Below are positions 10,811 to 28,638 of a DNA stretch of 30,280 nucleotides, piece after piece. The notes under the pieces were generated by a model. That model saw only the letters and a list, made by a program, of their open reading frames with translations, had not been told where the DNA came from and did no database searches. Position numbers and translations under genes: made by a program. Positions within the stretch are counted from its first letter, which is position 1. The number at the start of each line of letters is the position of its first letter. Source of the DNA: Candidatus Hydrogenedentota bacterium (GTDB taxonomy: Bacteria; Hydrogenedentota; Hydrogenedentia; Hydrogenedentales; SLHB01); the NCBI GenBank assembly GCA_034408725.1, contig JAWXCN010000170.1, forward strand, positions 1 to 30,280. The letters are read 5' to 3'.

Positions 10811-12199
10811 ATGATTAAAAAGATTCTGAAGTGGGCTGCGGTGATATTTTTCGTGTTGCTCGTGCTGTTCGTCATCTTTGTCGGGCCGTGGCCGGCATAT
10901 GAAGCGAGCGACGTAACGAAAGAAGGCTACTTCCAGGACGCCATCGCGCTCGTGGACAAAAATCTCGCCGAAACAACAATCGGAAAACAATTAGGGGTCT
11001 TGAAAGCCGGGTGGGGCAAGGCAACGATCACGCCGCCCATTGGCACACCGCTCTCCGGCTATGGTGATCGAGAAGGAAAACCCTCTACCGGAGTGCATGA
11101 CGACGTCTTCGTGCGCGCGCTCGCGCTGAGCGACGGCACGGATACCGTGGTCATTGTCGGCTCGGACATGCTCATCGTTCCGGACAACATCGCGAACATC
11201 GCGCGGGCGGACGCAGCGGCCCAGACTTCGTTGACGCCCAACGACATCCTGTTCAATGCATCGCATACCCATTGCGGTCCCGGGGCATGGGCGCCGGGAC
11301 TCGCCGGTACGGCCTTCTCCGGACAGTTCAATGAAGCCATTACGACCGAAATTGGCCACGAGTTCGGTGAGGCCATCATCGCCGCATTCAAAGCCCTCGA
11401 ACCCGCCGAAATCGCTCACGGTACGCTCGACGTTCCCGACTACATCCGCAACCGCGTCCGCGACGCGGGCACGGACAACCAGCTCAAGTTTCTCCGTGTT
11501 AAACAGCAGGACGGCGACGAATGCTACCTATCCTCCTACTCCGCGCATCCCACCGTCCTCGGCGGCGGAACCATGGAATTCTCCGCGGATTATCCCGGCT
11601 ACCTCTATCGTTATATAGAAGCGCAAACGGGAAAATTTGCAATGTACCTCGGCGGCGCCGTGGGCAGCATGGGTCCGAAAATTTCGGGCCCCGACGGATT
11701 CACCAAAGCCCAAATCATGGGCGAAGCACTGGCCACAAAAGTCTTGGACGCGGCTAAGGATGCCAAATTTACGAACAGCGTCGAAATCGCGTCGGTCGGC
11801 TTTCCGTTCAAAATCCCATCGATGCAATTCACGCCGATGGGCCGCAGTTGGCGCGTATCGCCCTACCTTGTGCCGATGCTCGGTATCGACAACATCGCGT
11901 GGGTCCAGGGCATCCGCGTCGGCGATATGTTCTTCTATGGGACGCCATGCGACATGAGCGGCGAAATAGCCGTGGACATGAAGCAATGGGCGAAAGACAA
12001 GAGCGTGGACCTGTGGGTGCTCAGCTTTTGCGGCGACTACATCGGGTATGTCTCTCCACAGAAATACTATGAAACCGCGGATCCGAATGGCGACGAAGCC
12101 TACGAAATGTACCTCATGTCCTGGTTCGGCCCAAATCAGGAACCGTTCTTCACCGGAGTCATGGAACATATGATCCAGAAAATGTATGCCGCGCTGTAA
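10811..12199 (+). CDS. Neutral/alkaline ceramidase-family protein with N-terminal membrane anchor
   Basis: ITPPIGTPLSGY, VHDDVFVRAL, NASHTHCGP, YSAHPT, SADYPG and GYV...YE. Confidence 0.8.
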   Translation: MIKKILKWAAVIFFVLLVLFVIFVGPWPAYEASDVTKEGYFQDAIALVDKNLAETTIGKQLGVLKAGWGKATITPPIGTPLSGYGDREGKPSTGVHDDVFVRALALSDGTDTVVIVGSDMLIVPDNIANIARADAAAQTSLTPNDILFNASHTHCGPGAWAPGLAGTAFSGQFNEAITTEIGHEFGEAIIAAFKALEPAEIAHGTLDVPDYIRNRVRDAGTDNQLKFLRVKQQDGDECYLSSYSAHPTVLGGGTMEFSADYPGYLYRYIEAQTGKFAMYLGGAVGSMGPKISGPDGFTKAQIMGEALATKVLDAAKDAKFTNSVEIASVGFPFKIPSMQFTPMGRSWRVSPYLVPMLGIDNIAWVQGIRVGDMFFYGTPCDMSGEIAVDMKQWAKDKSVDLWVLSFCGDYIGYVSPQKYYETADPNGDEAYEMYLMSWFGPNQEPFFTGVMEHMIQKMYAAL

Positions 12200-13563
12200 T
12201 GTCCATGGATGAGCAATCGCTCGAAACGTCGATCCTTTCGCCGCCACTCGTCGAGGCGCAACCGCTTCGCCTGCTGGTTCCGGCCCTGCTGGTAATCGCT
12301 GGCATGTTGGTCCTTGGCGTCCTCGCCTATCGGGAGCGCGCATGGATCGACACACAGGTTTGGAAAGATGCGCTGATCGTTCGCTCATCGGGTGATATCC
12401 CAGATGGAGCTATCGCCGCGCGTATGCGCTTTATTGATGCATCAAACTTTCCAGGCACGCCCGAACTGGAACTGGCAGGCAATTCGCTGTTGCCCAATAT
12501 CGATTGGAATCCGCGCGAACGATTAACTGCGTTGGACATGCCCGACGGTGTTTGGGCAACCGTGATTGAATCCGGTTCGGTCCCCGCCCCAAATTCCAAT
12601 GAAGTCATCGCCGGCGCGCTTTGCCGCCTCAATACCTTTTCCGTCGATGGCCAGGTGTTTACCGTGGTGGGCAAACTTCAATCCGGCACTCCGGGGCTGT
12701 CATTTTCTTACCTATGTCGCGAAAGCGAAGCAATGATCTTTCTCATGCACGCAGAAGGCGAACCCGGCTGGATCGATCCGCAGGGGCAAACGCGGGCGCA
12801 CGAAGAATTGGAATCTGAAATCGATGAAAACGCAAGCATCGTTATGCCGTTCGCACCTGTTTCCAAACCGGTGTCGTTTGTCGCTTTGGGGGCGATTGCG
12901 CTGATTGTGTGTGGAGCGGGCTTCGCGCAGGTCCGCATTGTTCGTCATCTCGCAAAGCACTTCGAGATCGTCCGTTGGTTTGTCGCCCCGGCAATTGAAT
13001 ATCGCGGATTGTTCATCGCCATGCATGCGCTATGTTACGGCGCATACTTTGTCCCCTCCATTGTGGCCGTCTGGGCGCCAGTACAAAACCTCACCCTGCT
13101 CACGATTGTAAGCGGGTTTTTTACCGAGGGAGACCTGAGTCATATCGGCGACGCCTATATCTCGGGAAACGTATTCGCCGCGGCCTGGGCAACGTTCTAT
13201 AATAATTTTATCGTACAGACGCTCTACCTCAGCATACTCCCTTCTCTGTTGATTCCGTTCATTGGAGTACTCAAGACTGCCTTCAGCCTGTTGATCGCTG
13301 GATTCGCACTCTCGCCGATTTGGACAAGTCTCATCGAAAAAATGACTTTCCACTCCGTCACGCTGTCGTTCGAATGCGAAGCCTACATTTTCGCGGCGTT
13401 TGCCATGAGCGCATACGTGCTGTACATCGTTCGATGGTTCAATGGAAAGCGCGAAAGTTTCACAAGCGCAATACAGGTAGTGGTTTCAGGAACGCTGCTC
13501 TCCGCCGCAATCCTCATAATCGCCGCGCTTTTCGAGGCCGCGACGCTGATTGCGTGGAGTTAG
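12199..13563 (+). CDS. Membrane protein: TM + MacB-like periplasmic domain + SpoIIM-like TM domain
   Basis: TAATG overlap with the upstream gene. IESGSVP..NEVIAG..FTVVGKL, then TFYNNF, FHSVTLSFECEAY and LIIAALFEA. Confidence 0.6.
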   Translation: MSMDEQSLETSILSPPLVEAQPLRLLVPALLVIAGMLVLGVLAYRERAWIDTQVWKDALIVRSSGDIPDGAIAARMRFIDASNFPGTPELELAGNSLLPNIDWNPRERLTALDMPDGVWATVIESGSVPAPNSNEVIAGALCRLNTFSVDGQVFTVVGKLQSGTPGLSFSYLCRESEAMIFLMHAEGEPGWIDPQGQTRAHEELESEIDENASIVMPFAPVSKPVSFVALGAIALIVCGAGFAQVRIVRHLAKHFEIVRWFVAPAIEYRGLFIAMHALCYGAYFVPSIVAVWAPVQNLTLLTIVSGFFTEGDLSHIGDAYISGNVFAAAWATFYNNFIVQTLYLSILPSLLIPFIGVLKTAFSLLIAGFALSPIWTSLIEKMTFHSVTLSFECEAYIFAAFAMSAYVLYIVRWFNGKRESFTSAIQVVVSGTLLSAAILIIAALFEAATLIAWS

Positions 13564-15731: not shown

Positions 15732-17221
15732 GCGCGCGAATCCGCTTCGGCGCGAATCCATTCCGATAACAAACGCACGCCATAACCGCTTGCGAACTTC
15801 GTGTCGAGATAGGAAATACCTTTTGCGCCCCAGGCCGTACCCGCAATATCGAGATGCGCCCACGGCGTGTCACCAACAAATTCCTTCAGAAAGCATCCGC
15901 CCTGAATCGCGCTGGCCTGGCGCGATGGTCCGATGTTGCAGAGGTCGGCATGCTCGCCTTCCATCATCGCGCTATAATCTTCCCATAGCGGAAACCGCCA
16001 CACGCGTTCGCCCGTCACTTTGGACGCTGCTTCGATCTCCGCGTACAACGCATCGTCGGTTGCCATCACCCCCGCCGCGTAATGACCTAGCGCAACGATG
16101 ACACCTCCCGTCAGCGTAGCAACGTCCACAATCTTATTTGGCGCGTAGTGATCAACAAGGTAGGCCAGTGCATCGCAGAGCACCATTCGGCCTTCCGCGT
16201 CGGTATTGTGGACTTCGATCGTTTTTCCATTGTACGCGCGCACAATGTCTCCGGGCTTCTGCGCGTTGCCATCGACGCAGTTCTCCGCGGCCGGCACGAC
16301 GCAGAGAACATTGATAGTAGGTTTTGTCTGGCCAACGGTCTTCATCGCGCCCAGCACAGCCGCTGCCCCGCACATGTCATATTTCATCTCGTGCATGCTG
16401 TCGGACGGCTTGATGCTGATACCGCCTGTGTCAAATGTAATGCCCTTGCCGACCATCGCAAGCGTAGGCGCGTCGTGCGAGGCGTGATGGCTGATGATGA
16501 TGAGTTTCGGCGGTTCCTTGCTTCCCCGTGCAACACCGAGCAGCGCGTTCATGCCCAACTCCGCCATGCGGCCCGCGTCAAGACAATCGTATTCCAGTTT
16601 GTATTTCTCGGCGATGGTTTGCGCCTCAAACGCGAGTTGCGCGGGCGTCATGTCGTTTGATGCGGCATTGCCAAGGTCGCGCGCCCAGTTCGCGTTCGCG
16701 CAGACACGCGCGGCATGATTGCATGCACTAACCTCATCAACTAACGCAAAGGCCGATGCGCCGACCAGCACCACGTCGTCGATTTCTTCCGCAAAAGCAT
16801 CGGGTTTGGGTTTCTTATACCGGTCATACCGGTATTGTCCGAGAACTATACCGTCAATAAAACTTTGCACGGGCCAACGGTGCGATTCGCAATCAATTAC
16901 CAGGCGCGTGATCCGGTGTGAGCGCAGACAGTCAATTGCCTTGCCCGCGGCGCGCCGGATTTTCTCTTTGTCGGGGTCGGCGTCCGGCCCAAGTCCGATC
17001 AGAATAATTGCCCGTGCGCCATCGTCCGCGATGGGCAATGCATACGAATCTCCCGGCTTTCCGCAAAAAACCTTGCGATCGCGGACAGCCCCAACGAGGG
17101 CGCGCCCGGCATCAGAAAGCAACGGCGAATTAAGCGCCGAGTCCTCCCGAAGGGGAATAACCAGCGCGGCCGCGGTATCCGCTTTTTTCCAATCCGACGG
17201 CGTTGTCGCATGAATTTCCAT
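15728..17221 (-). CDS. pepA: Leucyl aminopeptidase (M17)
   Basis: GKGITFDTGG, MKYDMCGAA, NTDAEGR, ATLTG and WAHLDIAG. GAGG SD before the ATG at 17221. Confidence 0.95.
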   Translation of the reverse strand: MEIHATTPSDWKKADTAAALVIPLREDSALNSPLLSDAGRALVGAVRDRKVFCGKPGDSYALPIADDGARAIILIGLGPDADPDKEKIRRAAGKAIDCLRSHRITRLVIDCESHRWPVQSFIDGIVLGQYRYDRYKKPKPDAFAEEIDDVVLVGASAFALVDEVSACNHAARVCANANWARDLGNAASNDMTPAQLAFEAQTIAEKYKLEYDCLDAGRMAELGMNALLGVARGSKEPPKLIIISHHASHDAPTLAMVGKGITFDTGGISIKPSDSMHEMKYDMCGAAAVLGAMKTVGQTKPTINVLCVVPAAENCVDGNAQKPGDIVRAYNGKTIEVHNTDAEGRMVLCDALAYLVDHYAPNKIVDVATLTGGVIVALGHYAAGVMATDDALYAEIEAASKVTGERVWRFPLWEDYSAMMEGEHADLCNIGPSRQASAIQGGCFLKEFVGDTPWAHLDIAGTAWGAKGISYLDTKFASGYGVRLLSEWIRAEADSRA

Positions 17222-17288
17222 TGGGAAGCGCCTCTTGGTACTAGCGGCAAATGGTACTGGAATAGGAGGTAAGGGGCAAACGCCGCTG

Positions 17289-18185
17289 CTAGAACTTGGC
17301 CAGGCGCTGGAATTCACCAAACCGGGCGTCGATTTCCGCGCGATCAATTTCCGCGAGCCGGTCTGGCCCAAATTTTTCGCAAGTGAAGGACGCGGCGACG
17401 CTCCCGTAGATAACGGCGCGGCGAAGCGCCGCGTTATCAGTCTGGTTTGCGCCCGCAAGATGCCCAAGGAAACCGCCGGCGAACGTATCGCCCGCGCCCG
17501 TGGGATCGCACAGGTTTTCGAGGGGATACGCAGGCGCCGAAAATACGTCGTCGTCGCTAAAAAGCATGCAACCATGTTCGCCCTTCTTCATGACAACAAT
17601 GCGAGGGCCCAGCGCGCGCACGGCTTTAACGCCGCGAATGAGATTGTTTTCCCCGGTGAGCAGTTTCACTTCGGAATCGTTGATGATGATGACATCAACA
17701 CGGCGCAGCACCTGTTCGAGCTCGTCTCGCGCAATATTGATCCACAAGTTCATCGTGTCCAGGCCAACAAACCTGGGCTTCGCCTGGTCCAGTACTTCAA
17801 GTTGCAATGACGGATGAATGTTACCCAGAAAAAGAAATGGCGCTTTTCTTGCCGCGTCGGGAAGCTTGGGATGAAAGTGCTCGAACACGTTGAGCTGCGT
17901 CTCGAGCGTGTCGCGGTTGTTCATGTCCTCGTGATACTTGCCGGTCCAACGGAACGTGCGGCCCGGTGCGCGCTCGAGCCCCTCGAGGTTGATGCCTTTG
18001 GCCGCAAGCAGTTCAACATGTTGATCAGGAAAATCATCGCCAACCACGCCGACAAGATTCACCTCCGTGAAATTCGCCGCCGCCAACGCGAAATAAGTCG
18101 CCGCCCCGCCTAATCCCTCGTCATTTCGTCCCTCGGATGTTTCAACTGTGTCCAGTGCGACCGAACCAACTACGGTAATGCTCAT
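17289..18185 (-). CDS. PfkB-family carbohydrate/nucleoside kinase
   Basis: VGSVALD, LGGAATY, INDSE and DPTGAGDTFAGG. Confidence 0.92.
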   Translation of the reverse strand: MSITVVGSVALDTVETSEGRNDEGLGGAATYFALAAANFTEVNLVGVVGDDFPDQHVELLAAKGINLEGLERAPGRTFRWTGKYHEDMNNRDTLETQLNVFEHFHPKLPDAARKAPFLFLGNIHPSLQLEVLDQAKPRFVGLDTMNLWINIARDELEQVLRRVDVIIINDSEVKLLTGENNLIRGVKAVRALGPRIVVMKKGEHGCMLFSDDDVFSAPAYPLENLCDPTGAGDTFAGGFLGHLAGANQTDNAALRRAVIYGSVAASFTCEKFGPDRLAEIDRAEIDARFGEFQRLAKF

Positions 18186-18241
18186 TCGAAACTACCCTCT
18201 CCAATCATTTTCTGGACACGAACCAACATCGTCGACACAAC

Positions 18242-18271
18242 CTCGTTCCCAAGTTCCCGCTTGGGAATGAG
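18242..18271. repeat. Intergenic palindrome (REP-like or terminator)
   Basis: CTCGTTCCCAAG-TTCCCG-CTTGGGAATGAG, an 11/12 inverted repeat 20 nt after the sigma54 activator stop. Confidence 0.65.
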
Positions 18272-18290
18272 AAATCTGGAACAAACTTCC

Positions 18291-19712
18291 CTAGCTCGCT
18301 TCTTTGGCCGCCGGCGGCTGATCGATATTCAATTGGTCCATCTTGTACTTCAGAATGCGGCGGGTCGTGCCAAGGATTTCCGCGGCGCGGGACTGCACAA
18401 AGTTGGATTGTTCAAGCGCATGCGTAATCAGGTGGCGTTCAACCCGGCGCGTGGCCTCCTCAAGGGTGAGGCCATTGAACTCCTCAAGCGCCGATGCCGC
18501 CGATGATGATATATCCGGCGTACTTGTCATTGAGTTGTTGCCAGGAATTGAAGGTGTAAGAATTCCCCGAAGGTGTTCCGGTCTGATCTCGTGCTCGGTC
18601 ATATTCATGACAAGTATTCGCTCGACCATATTCTGCAGCTCACGAATGTTACCGGGCCAATCGTAGCGCGTCATAACGCCCATGGCGTCCGGCGCAAACC
18701 GCTTTACCTTTGCGTTCACGCGCACCCTATGTTTTGCGACAAAAAAATTCACAAGGCTCGGGATGTCTTCCCGGCGATCGCGCAACGGTGGCATTTCAAT
18801 GTTCAGCACATTGACGCGATAATACAAATCCTCGCGAAAGATTCCCTGGGAAATGGCGTCGCGCAGGATGCGGTTTGTCGCGCAAACAAACCGCACGTCC
18901 ACCTCAATTACTTTCGTGCTGCCCACGGGATAAAACTGGCCGTCCTGCAACACACGCAACAATTTCGACTGCGCTTCGAGCGGCATTTCGCCGATTTCGT
19001 CAAGAAACAGCGTGCCGCGGTCCGCGATTTGCATTTTCCCGATGCGCTTCTCTGTCGCGCCGGTAAACGAGCCCTTCTCGTGGCCAAACAGTTCGCTTTC
19101 GACAAGCTGCTGCGGAATTGCACAACAGGACACCGCGACAAATGGGTTCTTTGCGCGTTTGCCGCCGGAATGGATGGCCCGCGCAATAAGGTCTTTACCC
19201 GTCCCGCTTTCACCCGTGACAAGCACGGTGGAATCAACAAGCATCGCGCGTTTCGCCATCGCAAGGGCCTGTTTGAGCACCTGGCTGTCGCCCACGATCG
19301 ATTCAAAGCCCTGCATATCCGCTTCGCGCAAAAGAGCGAGCTCACATTCGCGCTGTTGGTCGGAGATCAGTTGATCGACCTTCAGCGCGATCTCGTCAAC
19401 GTCGAAAGGCTTGATGACGTACTCGCGCGCGCCGCGCTTAATTGCATCGACGGCGGACGCCACGGACTTCACCGCCGTGACGACGATAACGGGAATGTCC
19501 CGGTCTTCCTTCGCGATCTCATCCAGCACTTCCATGCCAGACATAGTAGGCATGACCATGTCGAGCAATACCAGATCGACGTGGGTGTCTTTGATCATGC
19601 GCAAGGCCGTCGGGCCGTCCGCGGCCTGAAGCACGCGGTATTTATCCGACAAAATAAGGCGGTACGCCTCTCGGACGCTTAGTTCATCGTCAACGGCCAG
19701 GACGGTCTTCAT
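18291..19712 (-). CDS. Sigma54-dependent response regulator (REC-AAA+-HTH, NtrC/AtoC family)
   Basis: VDDE/LLD/KPF receiver, GESGTGK, ESELFGHEKGSFTGA, LFLDEIG, FREDLYYR, WPGNIREL and a Fis-type HTH. Confidence 0.95.
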   Translation of the reverse strand: MKTVLAVDDELSVREAYRLILSDKYRVLQAADGPTALRMIKDTHVDLVLLDMVMPTMSGMEVLDEIAKEDRDIPVIVVTAVKSVASAVDAIKRGAREYVIKPFDVDEIALKVDQLISDQQRECELALLREADMQGFESIVGDSQVLKQALAMAKRAMLVDSTVLVTGESGTGKDLIARAIHSGGKRAKNPFVAVSCCAIPQQLVESELFGHEKGSFTGATEKRIGKMQIADRGTLFLDEIGEMPLEAQSKLLRVLQDGQFYPVGSTKVIEVDVRFVCATNRILRDAISQGIFREDLYYRVNVLNIEMPPLRDRREDIPSLVNFFVAKHRVRVNAKVKRFAPDAMGVMTRYDWPGNIRELQNMVERILVMNMTEHEIRPEHLRGILTPSIPGNNSMTSTPDISSSAASALEEFNGLTLEEATRRVERHLITHALEQSNFVQSRAAEILGTTRRILKYKMDQLNIDQPPAAKEAS

Positions 19713-21666
19713 GCGTTGCCCCCGTAGTTGCCTGCTCGACGGCGCGCGGCGCGCCTGCCAACGCGGATACTGTACCTCGCAGGGGCATAAAAAATACAAA
19801 CGTCGAGCCAGCTTGCGAAGACACGAGCTTCAGATCGCCGTGGTGCTGCCGCATGATGCGGTGCGCTACACTCAGGCCAAGCCCCATCCCCGTTTCCCGC
19901 GTGCTGAAAAACGGTAAAAAAACGAGCGGCGCCACACCGGCGTCAATGCCGGGCCCCGTGTCGGCAACGGTAATCTCGCACATGTCGCCCTGCGCGCGGG
20001 TATCTACTTTTAGCTTTCCGCCGCCCGGCATCATCTCGCAGGCATTCTGGAAAACATTGTGGAGCGCCTGCGCGAAATACAACGAATCCAGTTCCGCATT
20101 GGGGTTGGACATGTCGAAATCGACGTTGAGCTGGATGTTCACGTCGCGAAACTTTTCCTCGAATGTTCCCAATACGTTTGTAACGGCGTCGTTGACCGAT
20201 GCGCGCTGCAATGACAGGCGCGGCGGACGCGCGAAATCGTAGAGCGTTTCTACTACCCGGTTGATCCGCGCAACTTCTTTTTGCACCACGTCGCTGAACT
20301 GCGTGCGAAATTCGGTCGAATCGTATTTGCGAGGCAATAGTTGCGCGAACGTGTTGATCGCAACCAGAGGGTTCTTCACCTCTTGCGCCACGCGCGCGGA
20401 AAGGAATTCCCAATACGGACTCCCCAGCACGTCTTCCGAAGGCGCCTTCCCGCTTTCCTTAACGGGTAAACGCGCAAAGATAAGAGCAACGCCGTGCTCG
20501 CCAACCGGCGCTGCACTCACGCCGAGCAACGTATTTGCGCCAATATCCCGGATTTCCTGGCGAAACAGCGCGCGCCCTTCTCCCAGCGCGCGCAATGCAA
20601 CGTCCGCAAACGCGGAACCGAGCCGTTGAACGCTCCGCCCCACAATGTCGCGCTTGCGCACTTGCAACAGGGTCTCGGCGCTCTCGTTCATGAACGTCAC
20701 CGATTTGTCCGGCGCTACAACCACCATGCCCGACGACAAATGCGTAAAGATGGTTTCCAACTGCCCTTGTTGGTCCGCCATGCTGCGATAGCGTCTGGAA
20801 TTCTCCAGAGCGATTCCAGCCGTCCGCGCGAGCAGCGCCAGGAGTTCCCTATCGTCCTGTGAATAATCTCGGCCGGACGGAACGTCTCCCACGAGCAACG
20901 CACCGCTCACCACTCCATCGCACATCAGAGGCGCCGCGAATCGAGCACCGAGTAGTTGCAATTCCTTTTGCGCCGCCGCGTCGACTATGTGACTTCGATC
21001 AATCTGGACAGGCGATTCTTCGAGCAGGCGCATAAGTCCCGCTGAAAAATCGAGCCTCAAGGAATCCGTTACGGTGCGCGGCACGCCCTGCGCCGCCGCG
21101 ACGCGAATGGCCCCGCGCTCTTCCAAAAGCACGGCGCAACGCGCCGCGCCAAATACATCCTTCATCGCCTCGATCAGGTGGTCCGGCAGCCGGGCTGGAT
21201 TATCCAGATTGGCGGTAAGCCGACCTAGCCAGCGCAACGCCGTTTGATGTCGATCCAAGGACAGATGGTCCGTGGACGCCGGATTTGCCGGTGCCACCGT
21301 GGCTGGCGATAGCGCGCATTGTAAACTCGCAGTTTCAACGGCCGCGGTCAGGTTGTCGCATGAAAAAGGTTTGGTCACGCACCCCTGCGCCCCGGCTGCA
21401 ATGTAGCTCGCGCGGGTTTCGCTGTCGCCCCGGCCCAGCAGCGCGACAATGGGAATGAGCGGCGCTTTGGCCCGAATGCGGGCAAGCGCGTCTACGCCAA
21501 GTCTCGGCGTGTCATCGATTAAAATTACGTCTGCCGGCGCCGTGATTAGCCGCCGCAACGCATCGTCCACGCTGGACTCGATGAACACCACACCGGAATC
21601 TTTCAATGAGGCGGCCAACGCCTCGCGGACCCCCGCCTCCTCCGCGACCACCAATACCACTCGCAT
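19690..21666 (-). CDS. Cytoplasmic REC-GAF-PAS-HisKA-HATPase pseudo-histidine kinase (H-box His replaced by Gln)
   Basis: H-box reads RVAQEVKNPL. N, G1, F and G2 boxes are present (NVFQNA, DTGPGI, PFFST, GMGLGL). Atypical N-terminal receiver. Confidence 0.85.
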   Translation of the reverse strand: MRVVLVVAEEAGVREALAASLKDSGVVFIESSVDDALRRLITAPADVILIDDTPRLGVDALARIRAKAPLIPIVALLGRGDSETRASYIAAGAQGCVTKPFSCDNLTAAVETASLQCALSPATVAPANPASTDHLSLDRHQTALRWLGRLTANLDNPARLPDHLIEAMKDVFGAARCAVLLEERGAIRVAAAQGVPRTVTDSLRLDFSAGLMRLLEESPVQIDRSHIVDAAAQKELQLLGARFAAPLMCDGVVSGALLVGDVPSGRDYSQDDRELLALLARTAGIALENSRRYRSMADQQGQLETIFTHLSSGMVVVAPDKSVTFMNESAETLLQVRKRDIVGRSVQRLGSAFADVALRALGEGRALFRQEIRDIGANTLLGVSAAPVGEHGVALIFARLPVKESGKAPSEDVLGSPYWEFLSARVAQEVKNPLVAINTFAQLLPRKYDSTEFRTQFSDVVQKEVARINRVVETLYDFARPPRLSLQRASVNDAVTNVLGTFEEKFRDVNIQLNVDFDMSNPNAELDSLYFAQALHNVFQNACEMMPGGGKLKVDTRAQGDMCEITVADTGPGIDAGVAPLVFLPFFSTRETGMGLGLSVAHRIMRQHHGDLKLVSSQAGSTFVFFMPLRGTVSALAGAPRAVEQATTGATHEDRPGR

Positions 21667-21667
21667 A

Positions 21668-24184
21668 CTACGCACCTTTGCGTTCGGAGGCTCGGTGGGC
21701 TACCGGAAGCGTGATAACGAACGTCGTATCCTGCCCGGGGTTGCTCTCAACGTAGATGCTACCGCCGTGCTCGCTCACGATCCCGTGGACCACCGACAAA
21801 CCCAACCCAGTCCCATCGTCTTTGGTGGTATAGAACGGCGTAAATATCCGATCCAGACTCTCGCTGCTGATCCCGCACCCGGTATCAGTCAAGCAAACCT
21901 TCACACATTCGAAGTCTGGAACCGAACCCTTGACCCCACGCCGCACCAGCGCATGCTCGTAGTCCACCCTGACCCGAAGCGTGCCGCGCGATTTGTCCCG
22001 CATCGCATCTATGGCGTTCAACACGAGATTCAGAAACACCTGGTGTAACTGCTGCTCGTCACCATAAATGTTGACGCGCGGACCGGGAAAATCCGTCTGA
22101 ACCGAAATGCTTCCCTTGCGCAACTGGTTCTCTACCAACACTAGCACCTCTTCGATTATAGCACGAAGGTCTTGCGGTGCAAAGGTTGCTGGTTTCGGCC
22201 GGGCAAAGTGTAAAAGACGGGTGACAATCGAGTCGATTCGCTCCACCTCGTGTGGCACGATGTCGGTAAACGTCGCCCGGAAATCCGGGTCGTCATACCT
22301 AAGTGGAAGCAGTTGTGAGAATGTTTTTATTGAAACAAGTGGATTCTTTATTTCATGTGCCATGCCTGCGGCTAAAGTCCCCACTGAGGACAGCCGGTGG
22401 GCGCGTTGCACGTTCTGTTCCAGCCGTTTCACCTGGGTCAAATCGTACACCACTACCATCGCCCCGATAAGCTCGTCCTCCCCGGCCGTCAGAATTGAGG
22501 ACGACAACACCGCCGGAATGCGTTCGTCATCGGGACGCACGATCACCGTCTCATAGTCAATAATTGGCCGGTGATCGGCAAGCGTTTGTTCCAACACATG
22601 CGCCAGTTGAGTGTCCAGTTCCGAAAGGTGCTGGCCCACTTCGACGGGCCCAACCATCTCGCACATCCATTGGTTCACTGTTGTAACAATGCCCTGGGGA
22701 TCCACCGCGACTACCCCACCGCGCATGTTGGCGAGAATTCGCGCGCGATGCTGGTTGGCCTCTTCGAGTTTCCGGTAAAGCCGCGCGTTTTCTATGGCAG
22801 TGGCCAGTGGGCTGCTCAACGCGGTAAACGCAAGAATGTCCTCCGTTGTGTAAATATCGCGTGACACTTTTTGCCCCAAATTCAATAGCCCGACAAGTCC
22901 GCTTGTGCGCACGAGCGGGACGCAGAGATAGGCATCCAGCTCCGCGAGCATTTCCGCGATTCGATTGGCGTCTTGTGACACCCGTTCGCGCGCAATCTGT
23001 TCAAGGGTGAGGGGTTCGGTATTTTTGCGTACGTAATCAAGCAGCGGACTAAATTCGTGCGTGTGCATCCCCTTTTCCTCCGAGCGGCTCGAATATTCCG
23101 TAATCAGGGTGTTCAGATCGCGTTCATCCACCAGTTGCACCCGTACAACGGACGCGCCCACCGTAAATTCTATATCCCGGCACACGCGTTCCAACATTTC
23201 ATCGAGTTTGACCGTTTCCGAAGCGGTCTTGCCCACCCGTGCAAGCAATTGGTTGACGTCGTACCGGCGGCGCATGACGACGCGGTTAAGCACCAGTTGG
23301 ACACGTTCTTTGATAGGTTCGAGGATTAGTACAATGACGAGCGCCGCGACCACCGTCGGCAATGTGTTTCTCATTTCAGGGCTCATCGGAAGCTCGCCGA
23401 GCATCCAATGCACCGATGTAATGGAGCCGAGAAACACCAGGGCCACCAGTCCGCTTGCGGTGGCGAACACAGTCGTGCGGGAGAGAATAACCCAGATGTC
23501 GAGCAGGTGATAACGCACCATCGCGTACGCGAAAAAACCCATCATGATAACGATGAACACTGGACCATACGGTTCCAGGTCGTTGATTCCAATCATTGGG
23601 CCGACAATATTCGTCAGGAAGCCCGACGCCGTTCCCAACAGAATACCGAGAAAAATGTGCTGCAATTGCCGGCGTTCTATACCCCGCGCACGCCGCAGCT
23701 TGCGGAATAAGTTGGCGTGCATCGCGAAGAACACTACTGCGCACAGTGCCGAAAAACCTGTCAGCAGCGGGCCGTACACCACACGAGGCGGACTTCCCGG
23801 CGGCAGGGTCAGGTCCTGAATATATTCATCGTCCAACACAAGCGAAAGGCAGGTCAGAATCAAACCGCCAGCAGACAAAATAAAAAGCAGAACCTTGGAC
23901 CCATCAAATTTACCGCGCGGAAACAGGCTGATAAAGGTGTAATAAGCCGCGGGCAGTGTACACGCGAACCAGAATGACGCGTTCACCCGCAAACGCGCTT
24001 CTTCGACGGTCTCGGCCCGGATGACAAAAAGAATCGCAGTCGTCCAAAGGAACAGGCTCAAGCACAACGCGACAAAGGACAAATGCGTTGCCGTGCGCTG
24101 CGAGCGCAGCAGCACAATGGCGGCAAGAACAATGCAGGAGATGGCGGAAGCGGCGAGGAAACCCGACGTAATTGCGAGTTCCAT
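21668..24184 (-). CDS. Membrane histidine kinase (HisKA_7TM-like multi-TM, GAF, PAS, HisKA, HATPase)
   Basis: About 9 hydrophobic helices, YAMVRYHLLDI, GAF ending AIENARLY, AGMAHEIKNPL, NLVLNAIDA, DTGCGI and GTGLGL. TGATG overlap with the KS stop. Confidence 0.93.
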   Translation of the reverse strand: MELAITSGFLAASAISCIVLAAIVLLRSQRTATHLSFVALCLSLFLWTTAILFVIRAETVEEARLRVNASFWFACTLPAAYYTFISLFPRGKFDGSKVLLFILSAGGLILTCLSLVLDDEYIQDLTLPPGSPPRVVYGPLLTGFSALCAVVFFAMHANLFRKLRRARGIERRQLQHIFLGILLGTASGFLTNIVGPMIGINDLEPYGPVFIVIMMGFFAYAMVRYHLLDIWVILSRTTVFATASGLVALVFLGSITSVHWMLGELPMSPEMRNTLPTVVAALVIVLILEPIKERVQLVLNRVVMRRRYDVNQLLARVGKTASETVKLDEMLERVCRDIEFTVGASVVRVQLVDERDLNTLITEYSSRSEEKGMHTHEFSPLLDYVRKNTEPLTLEQIARERVSQDANRIAEMLAELDAYLCVPLVRTSGLVGLLNLGQKVSRDIYTTEDILAFTALSSPLATAIENARLYRKLEEANQHRARILANMRGGVVAVDPQGIVTTVNQWMCEMVGPVEVGQHLSELDTQLAHVLEQTLADHRPIIDYETVIVRPDDERIPAVLSSSILTAGEDELIGAMVVVYDLTQVKRLEQNVQRAHRLSSVGTLAAGMAHEIKNPLVSIKTFSQLLPLRYDDPDFRATFTDIVPHEVERIDSIVTRLLHFARPKPATFAPQDLRAIIEEVLVLVENQLRKGSISVQTDFPGPRVNIYGDEQQLHQVFLNLVLNAIDAMRDKSRGTLRVRVDYEHALVRRGVKGSVPDFECVKVCLTDTGCGISSESLDRIFTPFYTTKDDGTGLGLSVVHGIVSEHGGSIYVESNPGQDTTFVITLPVAHRASERKGA

Positions 24185-25428
24185 CAATCCGGCTTTCGCA
24201 GCACCACGCCGCTGTGGGTGCCGCCAAAACTCATCGCCGTAACCAGCACCGTCGAGACGTCGTTCAATCGCGCGCGATGCGGCACGTAATCAAGATCGCA
24301 CTCCGGATCGGACTCGTCAAGATTAATCGTTGGTGGAATAACACCGCGCTCCAGACACATCAACGCCGCCCCTACACCCAGAAGGCCGCCCGCGGCATAC
24401 GGCTGTCCGGTCATGGATTTCGGCGCGGTGATCGGAATGTGGTGCGCGTGGGCGCCCAGCGCTTTTTTGTAGGCCGAGGTTTCGCTGCGATCATACATCG
24501 GCAGCGAAACACCGTGGCACACCGCCGCATCCAGGTCGTCCGGACGCATCCCCGCGGCCTGCAAGGACGTCCCGATCGCGCGCGCAAGGGCCCTCCCTTC
24601 CTTGTCAATGACCAGCGGATTGTTCCCTTCGGCGGCCGCGCCATAGCCTGCTACCTCCGCGTAGATACGTGCGCCCCGTGCCTTGGCCGCGGATTCGCGT
24701 TCGAGGAAGACGCAGCCAGCCCCTTCGCTGAGCACAATTCCATCCGCGGTCTTGTCGAACGGCCGCATGGCTGTGTGGGGATCATCGTTGCGTTTGGATA
24801 CGACATTCAGGGAACAGCTTACCGCCATGGTCAATGGCGTCAAAGGCGATTCCGACGCGCCTACCACCGCGGCGTCTGCGTGGCCATACCGGAGTTGTTC
24901 CACGCCCCACTGTAATACATCCAAACCCGTGGCGCACCCGCTCGCTATGGTTGTCGCCGGACCGCGGAATTTGAATGTCGTGCTCACGTTCGCAGTGGAT
25001 GCGTGGCCTGACGACGCGGATGACGCGAACTTGTCTATCTTGTCCCAACCCTGTGATTCGTACGTTTCCCGATACCGCAGGTAATGCTCGTCCGGGGCGC
25101 CGACGCTTGTGCCAAACCCCACCGCGACGCGTTCGGGCGCGTACCCTGCCTTCGCGAATTCGGCATCGTCGTATGCAAGGCGCGCGCACGCCACCGATTG
25201 ATGGACATGGCTGTGCCAGCGTTTGATGTCTGCTTTGGATAAAAAATCCTCCGGGTTGAAGTCCCAGAGTTGCCCCCCAATATGGCAGGGAAATGGACTC
25301 GTGTCAAAACGTGTTATCAGGCCTATGCCCGACTTGCCCCGTTCCAGCGAGTCCCAAAACGCCGGCAATCCGATTCCGTTGCACGCCAAGATCCCGGCTC
25401 CCGTAATGACAATTCGATCAACCGGCAC
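24184..25428 (-). CDS. FabF-like beta-ketoacyl synthase family protein with atypical active site
   Basis: IVITGAG, ASGCATG (Cys), RPFD..DG..LSEGAG, CHGVSL, PKSMTGQP, IPPTIN and SFGGTH. Confidence 0.88.
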   Translation of the reverse strand: MPVDRIVITGAGILACNGIGLPAFWDSLERGKSGIGLITRFDTSPFPCHIGGQLWDFNPEDFLSKADIKRWHSHVHQSVACARLAYDDAEFAKAGYAPERVAVGFGTSVGAPDEHYLRYRETYESQGWDKIDKFASSASSGHASTANVSTTFKFRGPATTIASGCATGLDVLQWGVEQLRYGHADAAVVGASESPLTPLTMAVSCSLNVVSKRNDDPHTAMRPFDKTADGIVLSEGAGCVFLERESAAKARGARIYAEVAGYGAAAEGNNPLVIDKEGRALARAIGTSLQAAGMRPDDLDAAVCHGVSLPMYDRSETSAYKKALGAHAHHIPITAPKSMTGQPYAAGGLLGVGAALMCLERGVIPPTINLDESDPECDLDYVPHRARLNDVSTVLVTAMSFGGTHSGVVLRKPD

Positions 25429-25431
25429 AAC

Positions 25432-27117
25432 TTAGTTTCCTACCGCAAGGCGTTCGGTGTCTCGTGCGCGCAAGGCCATTCGCTTTGCGGGCACGCATGC
25501 CACCTCGTTAAACAAATCCACCATCGTGGCGACACCCATCGCATCACCACGGTGAAAATCCCGCTGCATTCGCGCCGCATACTCGGCTTCCCGCCCGGAG
25601 TCCGCCACGATTCGCGCAAGCCGCACAATATCTTCTGGCAGCGAAGCAGAAATACCGCGTTGTTCAATGTCGCGCGCCAGCCCGCGGTATTGTTCGGCAA
25701 CCTCTTGCTCACTCCAGGCGCCCGTCCGATACGGACGCGCCGCCCAGTGTTGCCGCACGCAGGGATATTTCCGGGCCGCCGCCAATGCGCGCTCGTAGTA
25801 GTGCCCCGAATCAATGCCGAAACCCAGTCTCCCCTTCTCAGTGTACCACCGCGAACCAGGCACGACCGCCGGTGTCGTCAGGGGCGCGGCATCAGGTCGC
25901 GCGCGCTCAATGATGCGCAGCGTTTCCGCGCGCGTGTGTACATCGTCTGCCGGCGATGGATACGTAAAACGCGCGATGGTGTAAATGCCTGCCTGTTTGG
26001 CGCATCGAAGCGTACGTTCCAACTCCGTAACCGTCGTCCCGGTAACGTAATACTGATCGAGCAATCGCTGGCTACCTGTGTGTATCGGAAAAGAAAGTGC
26101 GGTACAGCCCGATGCAAAAAGGCCCGGAAACGTAGCCGGCACCGCATGCGCAGGATCGCACGACCGCGTGTATGCGGCGGAAATACCCCGGCGCAACATT
26201 TCGAGCGCAACGGCGCTGACATGCGAAGCGGGCGCGGCTTCGCCCGTGAAATGAAACGCGCGCGCCCCGAACAAAGTGCCGGCCCGCCACATTTCGTTGC
26301 ACACCGCGCCGACAGTCCGCATGCGCGGTAAACCGCCGTCGTGGTCGTCATCATTCACACAACGAACCGGAGAGCGGCAGTCATCGATCTCGAACAGCCG
26401 AAGCTTTTGTTCTGCCTTCAACGCTGGATATGCATCTGGATCGTAGACCGGCGCGGGCAATGACGAGAAGCTCGTCGCGTCTTCGCGGCCGGTCTCACGG
26501 ATGCGATTGCCTTCCGCGTACAAAATATTCGGAATAGACCCCCAAAGATGCATGGCCTCGATCCGCTCGGCGAGCGCCACCAGCGTGGCCTCCGTCTCGG
26601 CAATGCACACAACGTCGATTCCCTCATGGGCAAGCTCGGCGCCATACGCCTCCGCCATCGCTCCGAATGCCACTATCTTCAGTTTCGGCCGTTGCGCGCG
26701 AAGCGGGCGAATAATGGCGAGCGTGCTGAGAATGTCTTCAACCGCATTCAGCATAAACGCCGCAAAGTGCAAACCACGCTGGCATGCCAGTTGTCCGGCG
26801 ATTTCGCGAGCGGCTTCCAAGCGCCGTTCGCGAAACAAGCGGTTCGCTGTATTCATCTGCCACAGAAAATGGAGCGTCTGCAAGGGGTTGGCGAATCCGT
26901 CCGCGGCCATCGCGTCTGAAACCCGAACAGCCAAATCAGAGGGTTTGCCTCGGACGAGGCGATGGACCATTTCTACAGTGCCATAATCGAGGACGCGGGT
27001 TTCGTGACCTTGATCCAGTAAACTGCCCGCAACCGAGGCCATGAGCCGGCTTGGAATCAGGGCTTGTGGCTCAAAGGGGTATCCGGGAAAATAAACCAGG
27101 ACACTGCGAGTCTTCAT
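25432..27117 (-). CDS. B12-binding/radical-SAM-fold protein lacking the CX3CX2C motif
   Basis: GHETRVLDY, DVVCIAETE, IPNILY, LPAPVYD, GC...HTGSQRLL and VPGSRW follow the layout of cobalamin-dependent radical SAM proteins. The cluster-motif region reads DDCRSPVRCVNDDDH. GGGGAG SD before the ATG at 27117. Confidence 0.75.
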   Translation of the reverse strand: MKTRSVLVYFPGYPFEPQALIPSRLMASVAGSLLDQGHETRVLDYGTVEMVHRLVRGKPSDLAVRVSDAMAADGFANPLQTLHFLWQMNTANRLFRERRLEAAREIAGQLACQRGLHFAAFMLNAVEDILSTLAIIRPLRAQRPKLKIVAFGAMAEAYGAELAHEGIDVVCIAETEATLVALAERIEAMHLWGSIPNILYAEGNRIRETGREDATSFSSLPAPVYDPDAYPALKAEQKLRLFEIDDCRSPVRCVNDDDHDGGLPRMRTVGAVCNEMWRAGTLFGARAFHFTGEAAPASHVSAVALEMLRRGISAAYTRSCDPAHAVPATFPGLFASGCTALSFPIHTGSQRLLDQYYVTGTTVTELERTLRCAKQAGIYTIARFTYPSPADDVHTRAETLRIIERARPDAAPLTTPAVVPGSRWYTEKGRLGFGIDSGHYYERALAAARKYPCVRQHWAARPYRTGAWSEQEVAEQYRGLARDIEQRGISASLPEDIVRLARIVADSGREAEYAARMQRDFHRGDAMGVATMVDLFNEVACVPAKRMALRARDTERLAVGN

Positions 27118-27240
27118 GATGGCTCCCCGTCTGAGCACCCCGAAAAGGTGCCCCAAACCCATGATCACGACCGCCTGACACCACAACGGCCTCGAAAATC
27201 ATGGCCGAAATAGGTCATCACTACGCAATATATCGTGGTG

Positions 27241-27269
27241 AGTATAGCAAGTCTACAATATGTGTGCAA
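27241..27269 (-). promoter_or_regulatory. Sigma70 promoter with extended -10 for the five-gene operon
   Basis: Minus strand TTGCAC-17 nt-TATACT with TGn immediately before the -10 element. Confidence 0.7.
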
Positions 27270-27463
27270 GCGCCAATTTTGGGTACAACATATTGTTGGC
27301 ACTAGGGAAGTTAGTGTGACGCTTGCTCTTAACATATTATATTGCAATAACTTAGGAAGTTTTATTGCCCAATGGCCTCCGCCGCCCAAAATTCCCTGCA
27401 ACGCAGAACTCACGACCGGCATTATAATATAGGATGAAGGTATGCCTTCTTGAAGGAGCGCCG

Positions 27464-28315
27464 ATGAACGGGCCTGCTGAAAATAAAGAAATCGTGACGA
27501 CGGATAATCACACCGTAACGCCGGAAATCCTGTCCCCGGCAGAAACGACTGAAACCGAGTCATCCTCGGTCACCCACGTTGTAGTAAGGCGACGCGACTC
27601 CGCGGCTTGGGCCGTGGCCAGCGTCTTCATCGTCGCCATCCTCGCTGCCGCCTACGTGGTCTACAGTGTCATCTATTCCCTGCCATCCGACGCGATCAAG
27701 ACCGGCGGTGAGGTCGCAAAGACCGTCGCCAAAGAGGCCTCGAGCGTGCCGGAACGCCTGGCCGCGGCGCTTCGGCCAAATGTTAATGTAACGACGCTCA
27801 TGGCGAGCGCGATTGACAACGTAAAAAGCGACGGCAAGCTGGTCGTCATGACCGCGGATGTAGACGTTGAAATCAGTAAGGTCAGCGAGAAAGTCGTGTG
27901 GGAGATGCTGCGGCTTGGCGATACGACCGTGCGGCTGCGCGTGCGCGATAACAAAGTGCAGTATTTTATACCCATGGACAGCTTTACCGAAAAGAATGTC
28001 ACCTACAACATTGAATCAGACGCGCTGCTTGTTACCGTCCCTGCTCCGGAACTTGACCGAACCATCGTGGACGTTCAAAGCGACCCCGATTTCATCGAAG
28101 CTGAAACGAGCCTGGGCTGGGGCCGTTGGTCATCGGGTGAGTTCTTGATGGACGCCGCGCAACGTGAGCTGCGCGAAGCGGTCCTGCGCGAAGGAGCCAA
28201 CTCGCTCTTGCAAGAAAAGGCCCGCGACGAAGCCGAGCAGGCCGTACGTACGCTATTTGATGGACTGCGCCCACACCTCCGCGAAGGAGTGTCCATCCAG
28301 GTACAATTCAGCTAA
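27464..28315 (+). CDS. DUF4230-like single-TM protein
   Basis: GAAGGAG SD before the ATG at 27464. TM helix, KLVV...KVQYFIPM...LLVTVPAPEL and LLQEKARDEAEQAVRTLF. Confidence 0.7.
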   Translation: MNGPAENKEIVTTDNHTVTPEILSPAETTETESSSVTHVVVRRRDSAAWAVASVFIVAILAAAYVVYSVIYSLPSDAIKTGGEVAKTVAKEASSVPERLAAALRPNVNVTTLMASAIDNVKSDGKLVVMTADVDVEISKVSEKVVWEMLRLGDTTVRLRVRDNKVQYFIPMDSFTEKNVTYNIESDALLVTVPAPELDRTIVDVQSDPDFIEAETSLGWGRWSSGEFLMDAAQRELREAVLREGANSLLQEKARDEAEQAVRTLFDGLRPHLREGVSIQVQFS

Positions 28316-28344
28316 ATCGAAACCCGCGGAGCGAACAGCATCAC

Positions 28345-28638
28345 ATGCCAGAACAAAAAGTCGTCGTCGTCGAGGAGAAACCGCGCGGGTGCATGGGGAT
28401 CGGAATCGCAATGCTTGGCGTTCTCGGTTCAGGAGCCTGGCTGTTGAACTTTACGGCGGGTATTGTGGAACTTCCGGACATGCTCCCCATCTTCGGAAAC
28501 ATTGATGAGGCGGCGGCAGCCGCTGTATTCTTCAGTTGCCTTCGCTACTTAGGAATCGATGTGCTGCCGTTTGGGCGAAAGCAGCAGGTAACTACGCGCG
28601 AAATCATCGATGTAACGCCGGCCTCGAAACGGAAATAA
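28345..28638 (+). CDS. DUF1232/YkvA-like small membrane protein
   Basis: WLLNFTAGIVELPDMLPIFGNIDEA. Confidence 0.75.
   Translation: MPEQKVVVVEEKPRGCMGIGIAMLGVLGSGAWLLNFTAGIVELPDMLPIFGNIDEAAAAAVFFSCLRYLGIDVLPFGRKQQVTTREIIDVTPASKRK

Follow-up and report, generated by a model that had tools for sequence, protein, structure and literature searches.

What is a relative of a fatty-acid-synthesis enzyme doing in the middle of a signal transduction operon? This question is raised by a 30,280-nucleotide stretch of DNA from a Candidatus Hydrogenedentota bacterium (GenBank assembly GCA_034408725.1, contig JAWXCN010000170.1; the whole stretch is called the window hereafter). Five of its minus-strand genes encode, in order, a protein resembling cobalamin-dependent radical SAM enzymes (the rSAM-like protein), a FabF-type ketosynthase paralogue (KS), a membrane-bound sensor histidine kinase (HK1), a soluble paralogue of that kinase (HK2), and an NtrC-type sigma-54 enhancer-binding protein (EBP). 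A first-pass annotation of this DNA had proposed that the five genes form one coupled operon, and the junctions that it listed are confirmed in the sequence: the rSAM-like and KS genes are separated by 3 nt (TAA-GTT-GTG), KS and HK1 share a TGATG stop/start overlap, 1 nt lies between HK1 and HK2 (TAG-T-ATG), and the HK2 and EBP genes overlap by 23 nt. The reading that we favor, with a probability of roughly 0.4, is that this cassette serves as an input module for acyl or lipid status, in which a KS-derived protein would feed a kinase, its pseudokinase partner, and an activator of the NtrC type.

The KS protein carries the N- and C-terminal ketoacyl synthase domains (PF00109, 131 bits; PF02801, 84 bits) of the thiolase fold, including the active-site Cys and Lys expected of FabF. 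Its score of 335.9 bits on the FabF model TIGR03150 is below the equivalog cut-off of 493.75, and a canonical fabF located elsewhere in the genome of the window (G000) is above it with 560.1 bits. About 20 kb from this housekeeping fabF, a KS domain (G000:C32:37108-38367) is also present in a polyketide-synthase-like open frame of 2267 aa. When the cassette KS is aligned to Thermus thermophilus FabF (1j3n), the Cys and the first His of the Cys-His-His triad are seen to be kept, and the second His is replaced by Gln (KSMTGQ versus KSMIGH), which leaves a Cys-His-Gln triad.

This replacement is not peculiar to the window. Conservation was assessed with 20 loci retrieved through the rSAM-like gene, with 73 Hydrogenedentota-type loci anchored on HK2, and with a second set of 80 loci. 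Retrieval through the rSAM-like gene does not depend on this residue, and the KS Gln is present in 15/15 orthologous cassettes obtained in this way and also in 49/49 Hydrogenedentota KSs. Among the KSs of the second set, which represent three lineages, the Cys and the Lys are each found in 55/55. Careful alignment gives a different triad for each lineage: Cys-His-Gln in Hydrogenedentota, Cys-His-Asn in loci L110/L111, and Cys-Asn-Ile in loci L105-107/L112. As set out in a review of elongating ketosynthases (PMC9006962), the Cys and the oxyanion hole serve transacylation, and the two histidines serve decarboxylative condensation. Because the Cys and Lys are invariant and both histidines vary among lineages, the residues universally kept are, to judge from the alignments, those of acyl capture and not those of canonical condensation chemistry.

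The cassette KSs are also distinct as a group. In a quick maximum-likelihood tree, 55 of them fall together with a Shimodaira-Hasegawa-like approximate likelihood ratio test (SH-aLRT) value of 99, and five housekeeping FabFs as well as three further paralogues are placed outside this group; given the long branches and the lack of an independent outgroup, this grouping is a bipartition rather than a rooted clade. No cassette-type KS was found elsewhere in any of five genomes that lack either the cassette KS or the entire cassette (0/5).

The two kinases that follow KS are related to each other. By Pfam and NCBIfam matches, HK1 has the architecture HisKA_7TM-GAF-PAS-HisKA-HATPase, and HK2 has REC-GAF-PAS-HisKA-HATPase, with a receiver in place of the seven-transmembrane (7TM) domain. 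HK2 is 27-31% identical to the cytoplasmic part of HK1 over ~420 aa, which identifies the two as paralogues. They differ at the H-box, which reads AHEIKNP in HK1 and AQEVKNP in HK2, such that HK2 lacks the phospho-accepting His of HisKA-type kinases. The HK1 His is present in 16/16 cassettes retrieved through the rSAM-like gene and in 62/62 loci of the second set. The HK2 Gln is present in the window and in 15/15 orthologues fetched independently of this residue; its frequency in the second set, 72/74, is biased because the search pattern itself contained Gln. HK2 otherwise retains the N, G1, F, and G2 boxes for ATP binding, and N544, D572/G574/G576, F586/P588/F589, and G596-L601 are invariant in 13 sequences, as are Asp54 and Lys102 of its receiver. 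The prediction of a three-chain complex of HK1 (305-595), HK2 (135-420), and KS from per-chain alignments scored 0.77 three times, compared with 0.00 and 0.00 when KS was swapped for unrelated proteins and 0.75 when the HK1 fragment was swapped. Neither binding nor its absence can be concluded from this three-chain design.

The altered residues that the first-pass annotation reported in the rSAM-like protein, KS, and HK2 are therefore all confirmed, and the KS and HK2 Gln residues are fixed in the Hydrogenedentota orthologues examined. That annotation had also named lineage-specific decay or an assembly error as possible sources of these residues. Both sources are excluded: the same departures from the canonical residues of KS and HK2 are seen in orthologues near and far. 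Moreover, all five genes are under purifying selection. For every gene, the proportion of nonsynonymous differences (pN) is far below that of synonymous differences (pS, 0.65-0.75); comparison of the rSAM-like gene with its closest relative, for example, gives a pN of 0.165 and a pS of 0.715. The ratios of nonsynonymous to synonymous rates (dN/dS) that had been called for come to ~0.05-0.18 across the five genes, but synonymous sites are saturated and these values support a statement of strong purifying selection rather than the ratios themselves.

Gene order, another check proposed at the outset, is likewise conserved in relatives. The order rSAM-like/KS/HK1/HK2/EBP is found in 13/20 loci fetched through the rSAM-like gene. 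Among evaluable loci of the HK2-anchored set, HK1 occurs in 55/55, KS in 44/45, the rSAM-like gene in 39/41, and EBP in 59/62. The two apparent misses of the rSAM-like gene are L097, where the gene lies directly before HK1 and KS is absent, and L100, where there is a weak partial match. In three loci, L052, L058 (from genome G022), and L083, the operon stops after HK2 and no EBP gene is next. An HK2 orthologue is encoded by 83/135 genomes of the phylum, with most families represented, and was found in 0/23 genomes of family f11 and 0/10 of family f13. We interpret the cassette as one that is vertically inherited in Candidatus Hydrogenedentota. Several contigs labeled Nitrospiraceae, Nitrospirales, or Bathyarchaeia (L041, L043, L050, L055, L057, L059, and others) nest among Hydrogenedentota in the KS tree, and these labels are probably mislabels of metagenome-assembled genomes (MAGs) or binning errors.

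Beyond the phylum, seven loci of other lineages carry KS-HK1-HK2 without the rSAM-like gene. Thus, the proposal of a five-gene unit holds for Hydrogenedentota, where the order is kept, but the ancient core of the system is not all five genes; it is the FabF-derived protein together with the two paralogous kinases. In the lineage that comprises L105-L108 and L112, genes for a REC-HK-REC hybrid kinase and an MMPL transporter come after the trio in 4/4 loci with enough flanking sequence, and genes for an acyl-AMP ligase, a family III CoA-transferase, and a metallo-beta-lactamase-fold protein are located upstream in L106. In L110 (labeled Kiritimatiellia) and L111 (labeled Omnitrophota), a FadL-type outer-membrane transporter gene is divergent from KS, the second kinase retains its H-box His, and an EBP gene is next. 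Proteins of L110 and L111 are ~80% identical over FadL, an FAD oxidase, EBP, and a phosphoesterase, which reflects either a mislabeled or mis-binned MAG or a recent transfer.

The first protein of the operon has a different history. It yields only a sub-threshold Pfam match to the B12-binding domain (24.1 bits versus a cut-off of 32.1), no Pfam match to Radical_SAM (PF04055) at an E-value of 0.01 or better, and weak matches to several B12-radical-SAM models of NCBIfam; public records list its relatives as 'hypothetical protein', mostly without Pfam domains. Its fold is more informative. An AlphaFold2 model built from a 26-orthologue alignment (predicted local distance difference test score, pLDDT, 89.2; predicted template modeling score, pTM, 0.89) has a B12-binding Rossmann domain fused N-terminally to a radical-SAM barrel. 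Foldseek matches this model to class B radical SAM structures with E-values from 7e-20 to 4e-10, with TsrM on top (7e-20) and OxsB, MgmA, AprD4, CysS, and TokK next. A profile search of PDB sequences agrees, giving weak matches to AprD4, TokK, and TsrM, as does a search of the ESM Atlas.

The annotated absence of the CX3CX2C cluster motif from the protein of the window holds true, but this degeneracy is not universal. Among 45 distinct orthologues, 11 keep a canonical motif at the same loop and 34 lack it. Because the motif persists in these 11 proteins, a genuine B12-radical-SAM enzyme must have been the ancestor of the family. The sole internal disordered stretch of the model, residues 252-261, is at the expected position of the cluster-binding loop. 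Conservation of at least 90% in motif-bearing and motif-less groups alike extends to about 40 other positions, among them a GSQ strand motif and an acidic/His/Arg cluster at 391-405, and thus the fold and surface stayed constrained after cluster loss. The rSAM-like protein is nevertheless the fastest evolving of the five (24-75% identity versus 57-87% for KS). We consider the protein of the window to be probably a pseudoenzyme or accessory protein. Repeated loss of the motif is not established: the motif state requires one change on an unrooted HK1+HK2 tree and two on a tree of the rSAM-like proteins, for which the root was a very distant, long-branched paralogue. The rSAM-like proteins of L052 and L058, two of the loci without an adjacent EBP gene, keep the motif.

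EBP, the presumed output of the system, has the architecture REC-Sigma54_activat-HTH_8 (PF00072; PF00158, 230.9 bits; PF02954), and its Walker A motif (GESGTGKD) and GSFTGA loop are those of the NtrC family. The rpoN gene is present in G000, where 11 perfect sigma-54 sites were found versus 3 in a reversed-genome null. Among the genes behind these sites are two PII genes, a flagellar rod gene, and those for a PilZ protein, a PEP-CTERM protein, a TRASH-domain protein, and a PhyH-family dioxygenase, which offers a first sketch of the sigma-54 regulon. The gene at G000:C38:1242-2006 (minus strand) is among those behind such perfect -24/-12 sites. In the window itself, a sigma-54 pattern that allows up to 2 mismatches occurs 19 times versus 15.8 expected, and no -24/-12 element is present in the leader of the cassette. 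Likewise, sites of at least 9/11 were found upstream of the first gene in 0/32 loci and after EBP in 0/57 loci. By this sequence criterion, it is not apparent that the activator acts on the cassette that encodes it, and the lack of a sigma-54 promoter favors placing the two enzyme-derived proteins on the input side.

How might such an input module operate? The KS-like protein, with its Cys, Lys, and acyl pocket kept and its His-His pair lost, would load or bind an acyl chain from an acyl-thioester and thereby report fatty-acid or lipid status to the kinases. HK1 would autophosphorylate and pass phosphate to EBP and to the receiver of HK2. Because its H-box His is Gln, HK2 should be unable to autophosphorylate, although it would bind ATP and could tune HK1, either in the role of pseudokinase partner or by serving as a phosphate sink. 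EBP would then turn on sigma-54 promoters elsewhere in the genome. The rSAM-derived protein would be an accessory specific to Hydrogenedentota, and in the window, where the iron-sulfur site is lost, it may act as a non-catalytic ligand-binding or scaffold partner. One study (PMC10866078) describes Hydrogenedentota as predicted degraders of fatty acids and glycerol. This predicted lifestyle, together with the lipid-transport neighbors of KS in other lineages, fits an acyl-sensing module. A more specific version of the proposal is that an acyl-loaded KS, through its invariant Cys, docks on the sensory domains of the kinase and pseudokinase to gate the sigma-54 response in at least three lineages, with a cobalamin-radical-SAM enzyme having become a cluster-less sensor or scaffold. 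We regard this version as doubtful.

Several facts weigh against an acyl-status input module. The Cys-His-Asn triad of KAS III (β-ketoacyl-acyl carrier protein synthase III) supports condensation, and by analogy the Cys-His-Gln and Cys-His-Asn triads of the cassette KSs could still be compatible with this chemistry. An invariant Cys and Lys, and a level of KS conservation similar to that of EBP, fit an active enzyme equally well. The MMPL transporter and acyl-AMP ligase of the second lineage also resemble the context of a lipid synthesis-and-export pathway. KS is missing from the cassette in L026 and L028/L097, and therefore the kinases can work without it. Finally, G000 encodes 16 EBP AAA+ domains, and because of this number the 11 perfect sigma-54 sites cannot be assigned to the EBP of the cassette.

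The first-pass annotation framed the choice as a signal synthase with its receptor or a circuit in which enzyme-derived folds act as sensors. This was the right pair of hypotheses, and the evidence leans slightly, though not decisively, toward the second. In the first, which resembles quorum sensing, KS would make an acyl-derived molecule, with the help of an active rSAM-like enzyme where this is kept, and the product would be sensed by the 7TM or GAF/PAS domains of HK1/HK2 and relayed to EBP. The invariant Cys and Lys and the strong conservation of KS suit such a synthase, and in two lineages the third residue of the triad is an amide (Gln or Asn) that could take over from His. The 7TM membrane domain of HK1 is suited to a hydrophobic ligand, and the acyl-AMP ligase, CoA-transferase, and MMPL exporter of the second lineage would be at home in a pathway of this type. 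There is also precedent for the arrangement, as a synthase gene adjoins the gene for its receptor kinase in CqsA/CqsS and PhcB/PhcS, and by analogy KS and HK1 might be such a pair.

Other findings make a synthase harder to accept. The domain scan of the window proteins agrees with the earlier statement that the operon has no acyl carrier protein (ACP), acyltransferase (AT), or other fatty acid synthase (FAS) or polyketide synthase (PKS) gene, and it revealed no thioesterase (TE) or reductase gene that could release a product, nor any other gene for release or tailoring in the Hydrogenedentota operon. In the second lineage, Asn and Ile take the place of both histidines, which is a poor fit with condensation, and 34/45 rSAM-like partners are without the cluster motif. 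The annotation had drawn an analogy with the stand-alone ketosynthases PpyS and DarB, but these are KAS III-type enzymes and the cassette KS is FabF-type, scoring 18 bits versus a cut-off of 450 on the StlD/DarB model (NF005293). To our knowledge, no FabF-type stand-alone ketosynthase acts as a signal synthase, and the known examples are all KAS III-type. On balance, we judge a signal-synthase cassette to be unlikely, although it is the alternative that survives best.

Perhaps KS and the rSAM-like protein are instead lipid-modifying enzymes that ride with their regulators, with the 7TM domain sensing a property of the membrane. The desK/desR and des genes illustrate how a lipid-modifying enzyme gene can be located with its own regulators, and the large 7TM domain of HK1, the translational coupling of all the genes, and the lipid-transport neighbors in other lineages are in keeping with an effector operon of this kind. 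However, it is not obvious how EBP would drive the operon when a sigma-54 promoter precedes none of the 32 loci scanned, and the rSAM-like protein is retained even though its cluster is lost in most lineages. In none of the lineages does KS have the canonical triad for condensation, and a canonical fabF is available elsewhere in the genome. These considerations render a regulated effector operon improbable.

At 11/38 evaluable loci, drawn from several clades (L041, L050, L064, L066, L068, L074, L076, L087, L088, L095, and L097), fliM/fliN genes are divergent from the rSAM-like gene and lie 0.4-2.5 kb upstream of it, which is possibly a hint at a motility-related regulon, and a flagellar rod gene of G000 is among those with a perfect sigma-54 promoter. 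The cassette could thus be a flagellar checkpoint of the FlgS/FlgR or FleS/FleR type to which the enzymes are lineage-specific add-ons. Yet the fliM/fliN adjacency occurs in a minority of loci and is absent in the window, family f13 is flagellated (FliM in 8/10 genomes) and has the cassette in 0/10, and the genomes G014, G017, G025, G029, G046, and G047 are likewise flagellated without a cassette. Matches of EBP to the FlgR and FlbD models are far below the cut-offs (309 versus 750 and 323 versus 750, respectively), and we consider this role very improbable.

The least probable of the alternatives is that the cassette does in Hydrogenedentota what the PrsK/PrsR regulators do for the PEP-CTERM/exosortase system, an earlier analogy that we set aside despite the facts that HK1 is the sole G000 match to the N-terminal membrane part of the PrsK model (40 bits), that no G000 protein reaches the PrsK or PrsR cut-off, and that G000 has exosortases as well as a perfect sigma-54 site ahead of a PEP-CTERM gene, given that HK1 (130.8 bits versus 300 for TIGR02916) and EBP (352.1 versus 502.6 for TIGR02915) both fail the family cut-offs, five other G000 EBPs outscore that of the cassette on the PrsR model, and exosortase presence does not track the cassette across 135 genomes, with the cassette occurring without an exosortase match in G035 (a closed chromosome), G018, and several f3 genomes and exosortases occurring without the cassette in G014, G011, G025, G029, G046, and G047.

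The coordinates of the cassette and its flanking features are given in Table 1. A GGGGAG box, read in the sequence, precedes the likely ATG of the rSAM-like gene. The near-consensus promoter noted previously deserves little weight: the leader holds two overlapping pairs of sigma-70-like hexamers (27268-27241 and 27255-27227), and two sites internal to the region score higher, at 10/12. A scan of 17000-28500 found 10 sigma-70-like sites versus 4.8 +/- 2.4 in shuffled sequences. The PfkB-family kinase gene that follows EBP, overlooked in the first-pass annotation, is often the sixth gene of the cassette: it is found on the same strand in that position in 37/53 evaluable loci and is missing there in the two closest relatives (L013 and L033).

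Table 1. Positions of the cassette genes and adjoining features in the window.
Feature	Position	Strand	Remarks
rSAM-like open reading frame	25432-27186	minus	Likely start ATG 27117, giving 25432-27117, 561 aa
KS (FabF-type ketosynthase paralogue)	24184-25428	minus	414 aa
HK1 (7TM-GAF-PAS-HisKA-HATPase sensor histidine kinase)	21668-24187	minus	839 aa
HK2 (soluble REC-GAF-PAS-DHp-CA paralogue of HK1; DHp, dimerization and histidine phosphotransfer; CA, catalytic and ATP-binding)	19690-21675	minus	661 aa
EBP (NtrC-type sigma-54 enhancer-binding response regulator) open reading frame	18291-19799	minus	Likely ATG 19712, giving 18291-19712
PfkB-family sugar/nucleoside kinase	17289-18185	minus	105 nt downstream of EBP, co-directional
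AT-rich leader with two overlapping sigma-70-like hexamer pairs, 9/12 each	27227-27269	minus	Weak promoter candidate

Other parts of the window hold features of separate interest. Upstream of the cassette, a divergent gene (27434-28315, plus strand) encodes a DUF4230 membrane protein that is not among the recurrent upstream neighbors elsewhere. A 462-aa protein (10811-12199, plus strand) matches the N-terminal domain of neutral/alkaline ceramidases with 58 bits, which is unusual in a bacterium, and its gene is translationally coupled to an open reading frame for 454 aa without a Pfam family (12199-13563, plus strand). A 663-aa protein (6739-8730, minus strand) combines a glucose/sorbosone dehydrogenase domain with six bacterial thrombospondin type 3 (TSP3) repeats. 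For the segment 17289-27269, fractions of 0.64-0.91 of sampled words were recovered in assembled runs of three other microbial mat metagenome studies (2018).

The first-pass annotation did not recognize this combination as a described system, and we concur. No description of the cassette was found in the full texts indexed for the search or in Hydrogenedentota genome papers searched by term. The parts are of known kinds, namely a two-component system, a pseudokinase, and pseudoenzymes, and accessory sensor proteins are a familiar addition to two-component systems. However, the combination appears to be undescribed, as does a FabF-type paralogue that is fixed in a two-kinase module in at least three lineages. 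Likewise, no description was found of an operon that pairs a pseudoenzyme of radical-SAM origin with a pseudokinase whose His-to-Gln change is conserved.

If KS is a sensor, the cassette would represent a new route for reading acyl-thioester or lipid status. Should the acyl-loaded protein itself be the sensor, this would be the first two-component system to use a fatty-acid-synthase paralogue in that capacity, and the module would be ancient. If KS is a synthase, a new class of acyl-derived signal made by a FabF-type enzyme would be implied. Regardless, the six genes can be expressed heterologously and provide a concrete handle on regulation in an uncultured phylum, and the series of orthologues from cluster-bearing to cluster-less is a natural record of the transition from radical SAM enzyme to pseudoenzyme.

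Comparisons with known systems show shared as well as differing features. KS can be aligned end to end with FabF/KAS II and has the Cys, Lys, and Phe-Gly-Gly loop in common with it, but differs in its sub-cut-off score, its separate grouping, and its altered triad. The non-elongating KS0 domains of trans-AT polyketide synthases keep the acyl-accepting Cys and have lost the condensation histidine, a state that the cassette KS resembles. Unlike FabF and KS0, which belong to fatty acid or polyketide synthases, KS is a stand-alone protein encoded beside two kinases. The rSAM-like protein has the same three-part fold as the class B enzymes TsrM, OxsB, TokK, CysS, AprD4, and MgmA, in which an N-terminal Rossmann domain of the B12 type is joined to a partial TIM barrel and a C-terminal domain of helices. 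In contrast to these enzymes, it lacks CX3CX2C in the window and is linked to kinases instead of residing in a biosynthetic cluster.

Precedents for the kinase pair come from pseudokinase phosphorelays, such as DivL-CckA-DivK and the action of RetS on GacS. Like DivL and RetS, HK2 is a histidine kinase paralogue that lacks the phospho-accepting His and is encoded with a real kinase, and it could plausibly act as a phosphate sink or by contacts of its DHp or PAS domains. It differs in its His-to-Gln change, in having its own N-terminal receiver and GAF-PAS domains, and in its direct paralogy to the cytoplasmic part of its partner.

With regard to the whole circuit, the best-scoring named models are those of AtoS and AtoC, and both systems join a PAS-HisKA-HATPase kinase to an NtrC-type sigma-54 activator. 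AtoSC, which controls the use of short-chain fatty acids, responds to a beta-keto acid. The matches fall below the cut-offs (NF008468, 305.9 versus 646 bits; NF008469, 431 versus 714 bits), and AtoS, unlike the cassette, has no 7TM-GAF module, pseudokinase partner, or KS. The CqsA/CqsS-LuxO and PhcB/PhcS/PhcR systems share with the cassette the placement of a gene for an acyl-chemistry enzyme next to that of a membrane sensor kinase. CqsA is a pyridoxal-phosphate (PLP)-dependent acyltransferase and PhcB is a methyltransferase, and thus both belong to enzyme families unrelated to KS. EBP, which reaches 383 bits on the LuxO model (cut-off 800), provides a sigma-54 activator output of the LuxO type, and the receiver-plus-kinase-like composition of HK2 recalls PhcR.

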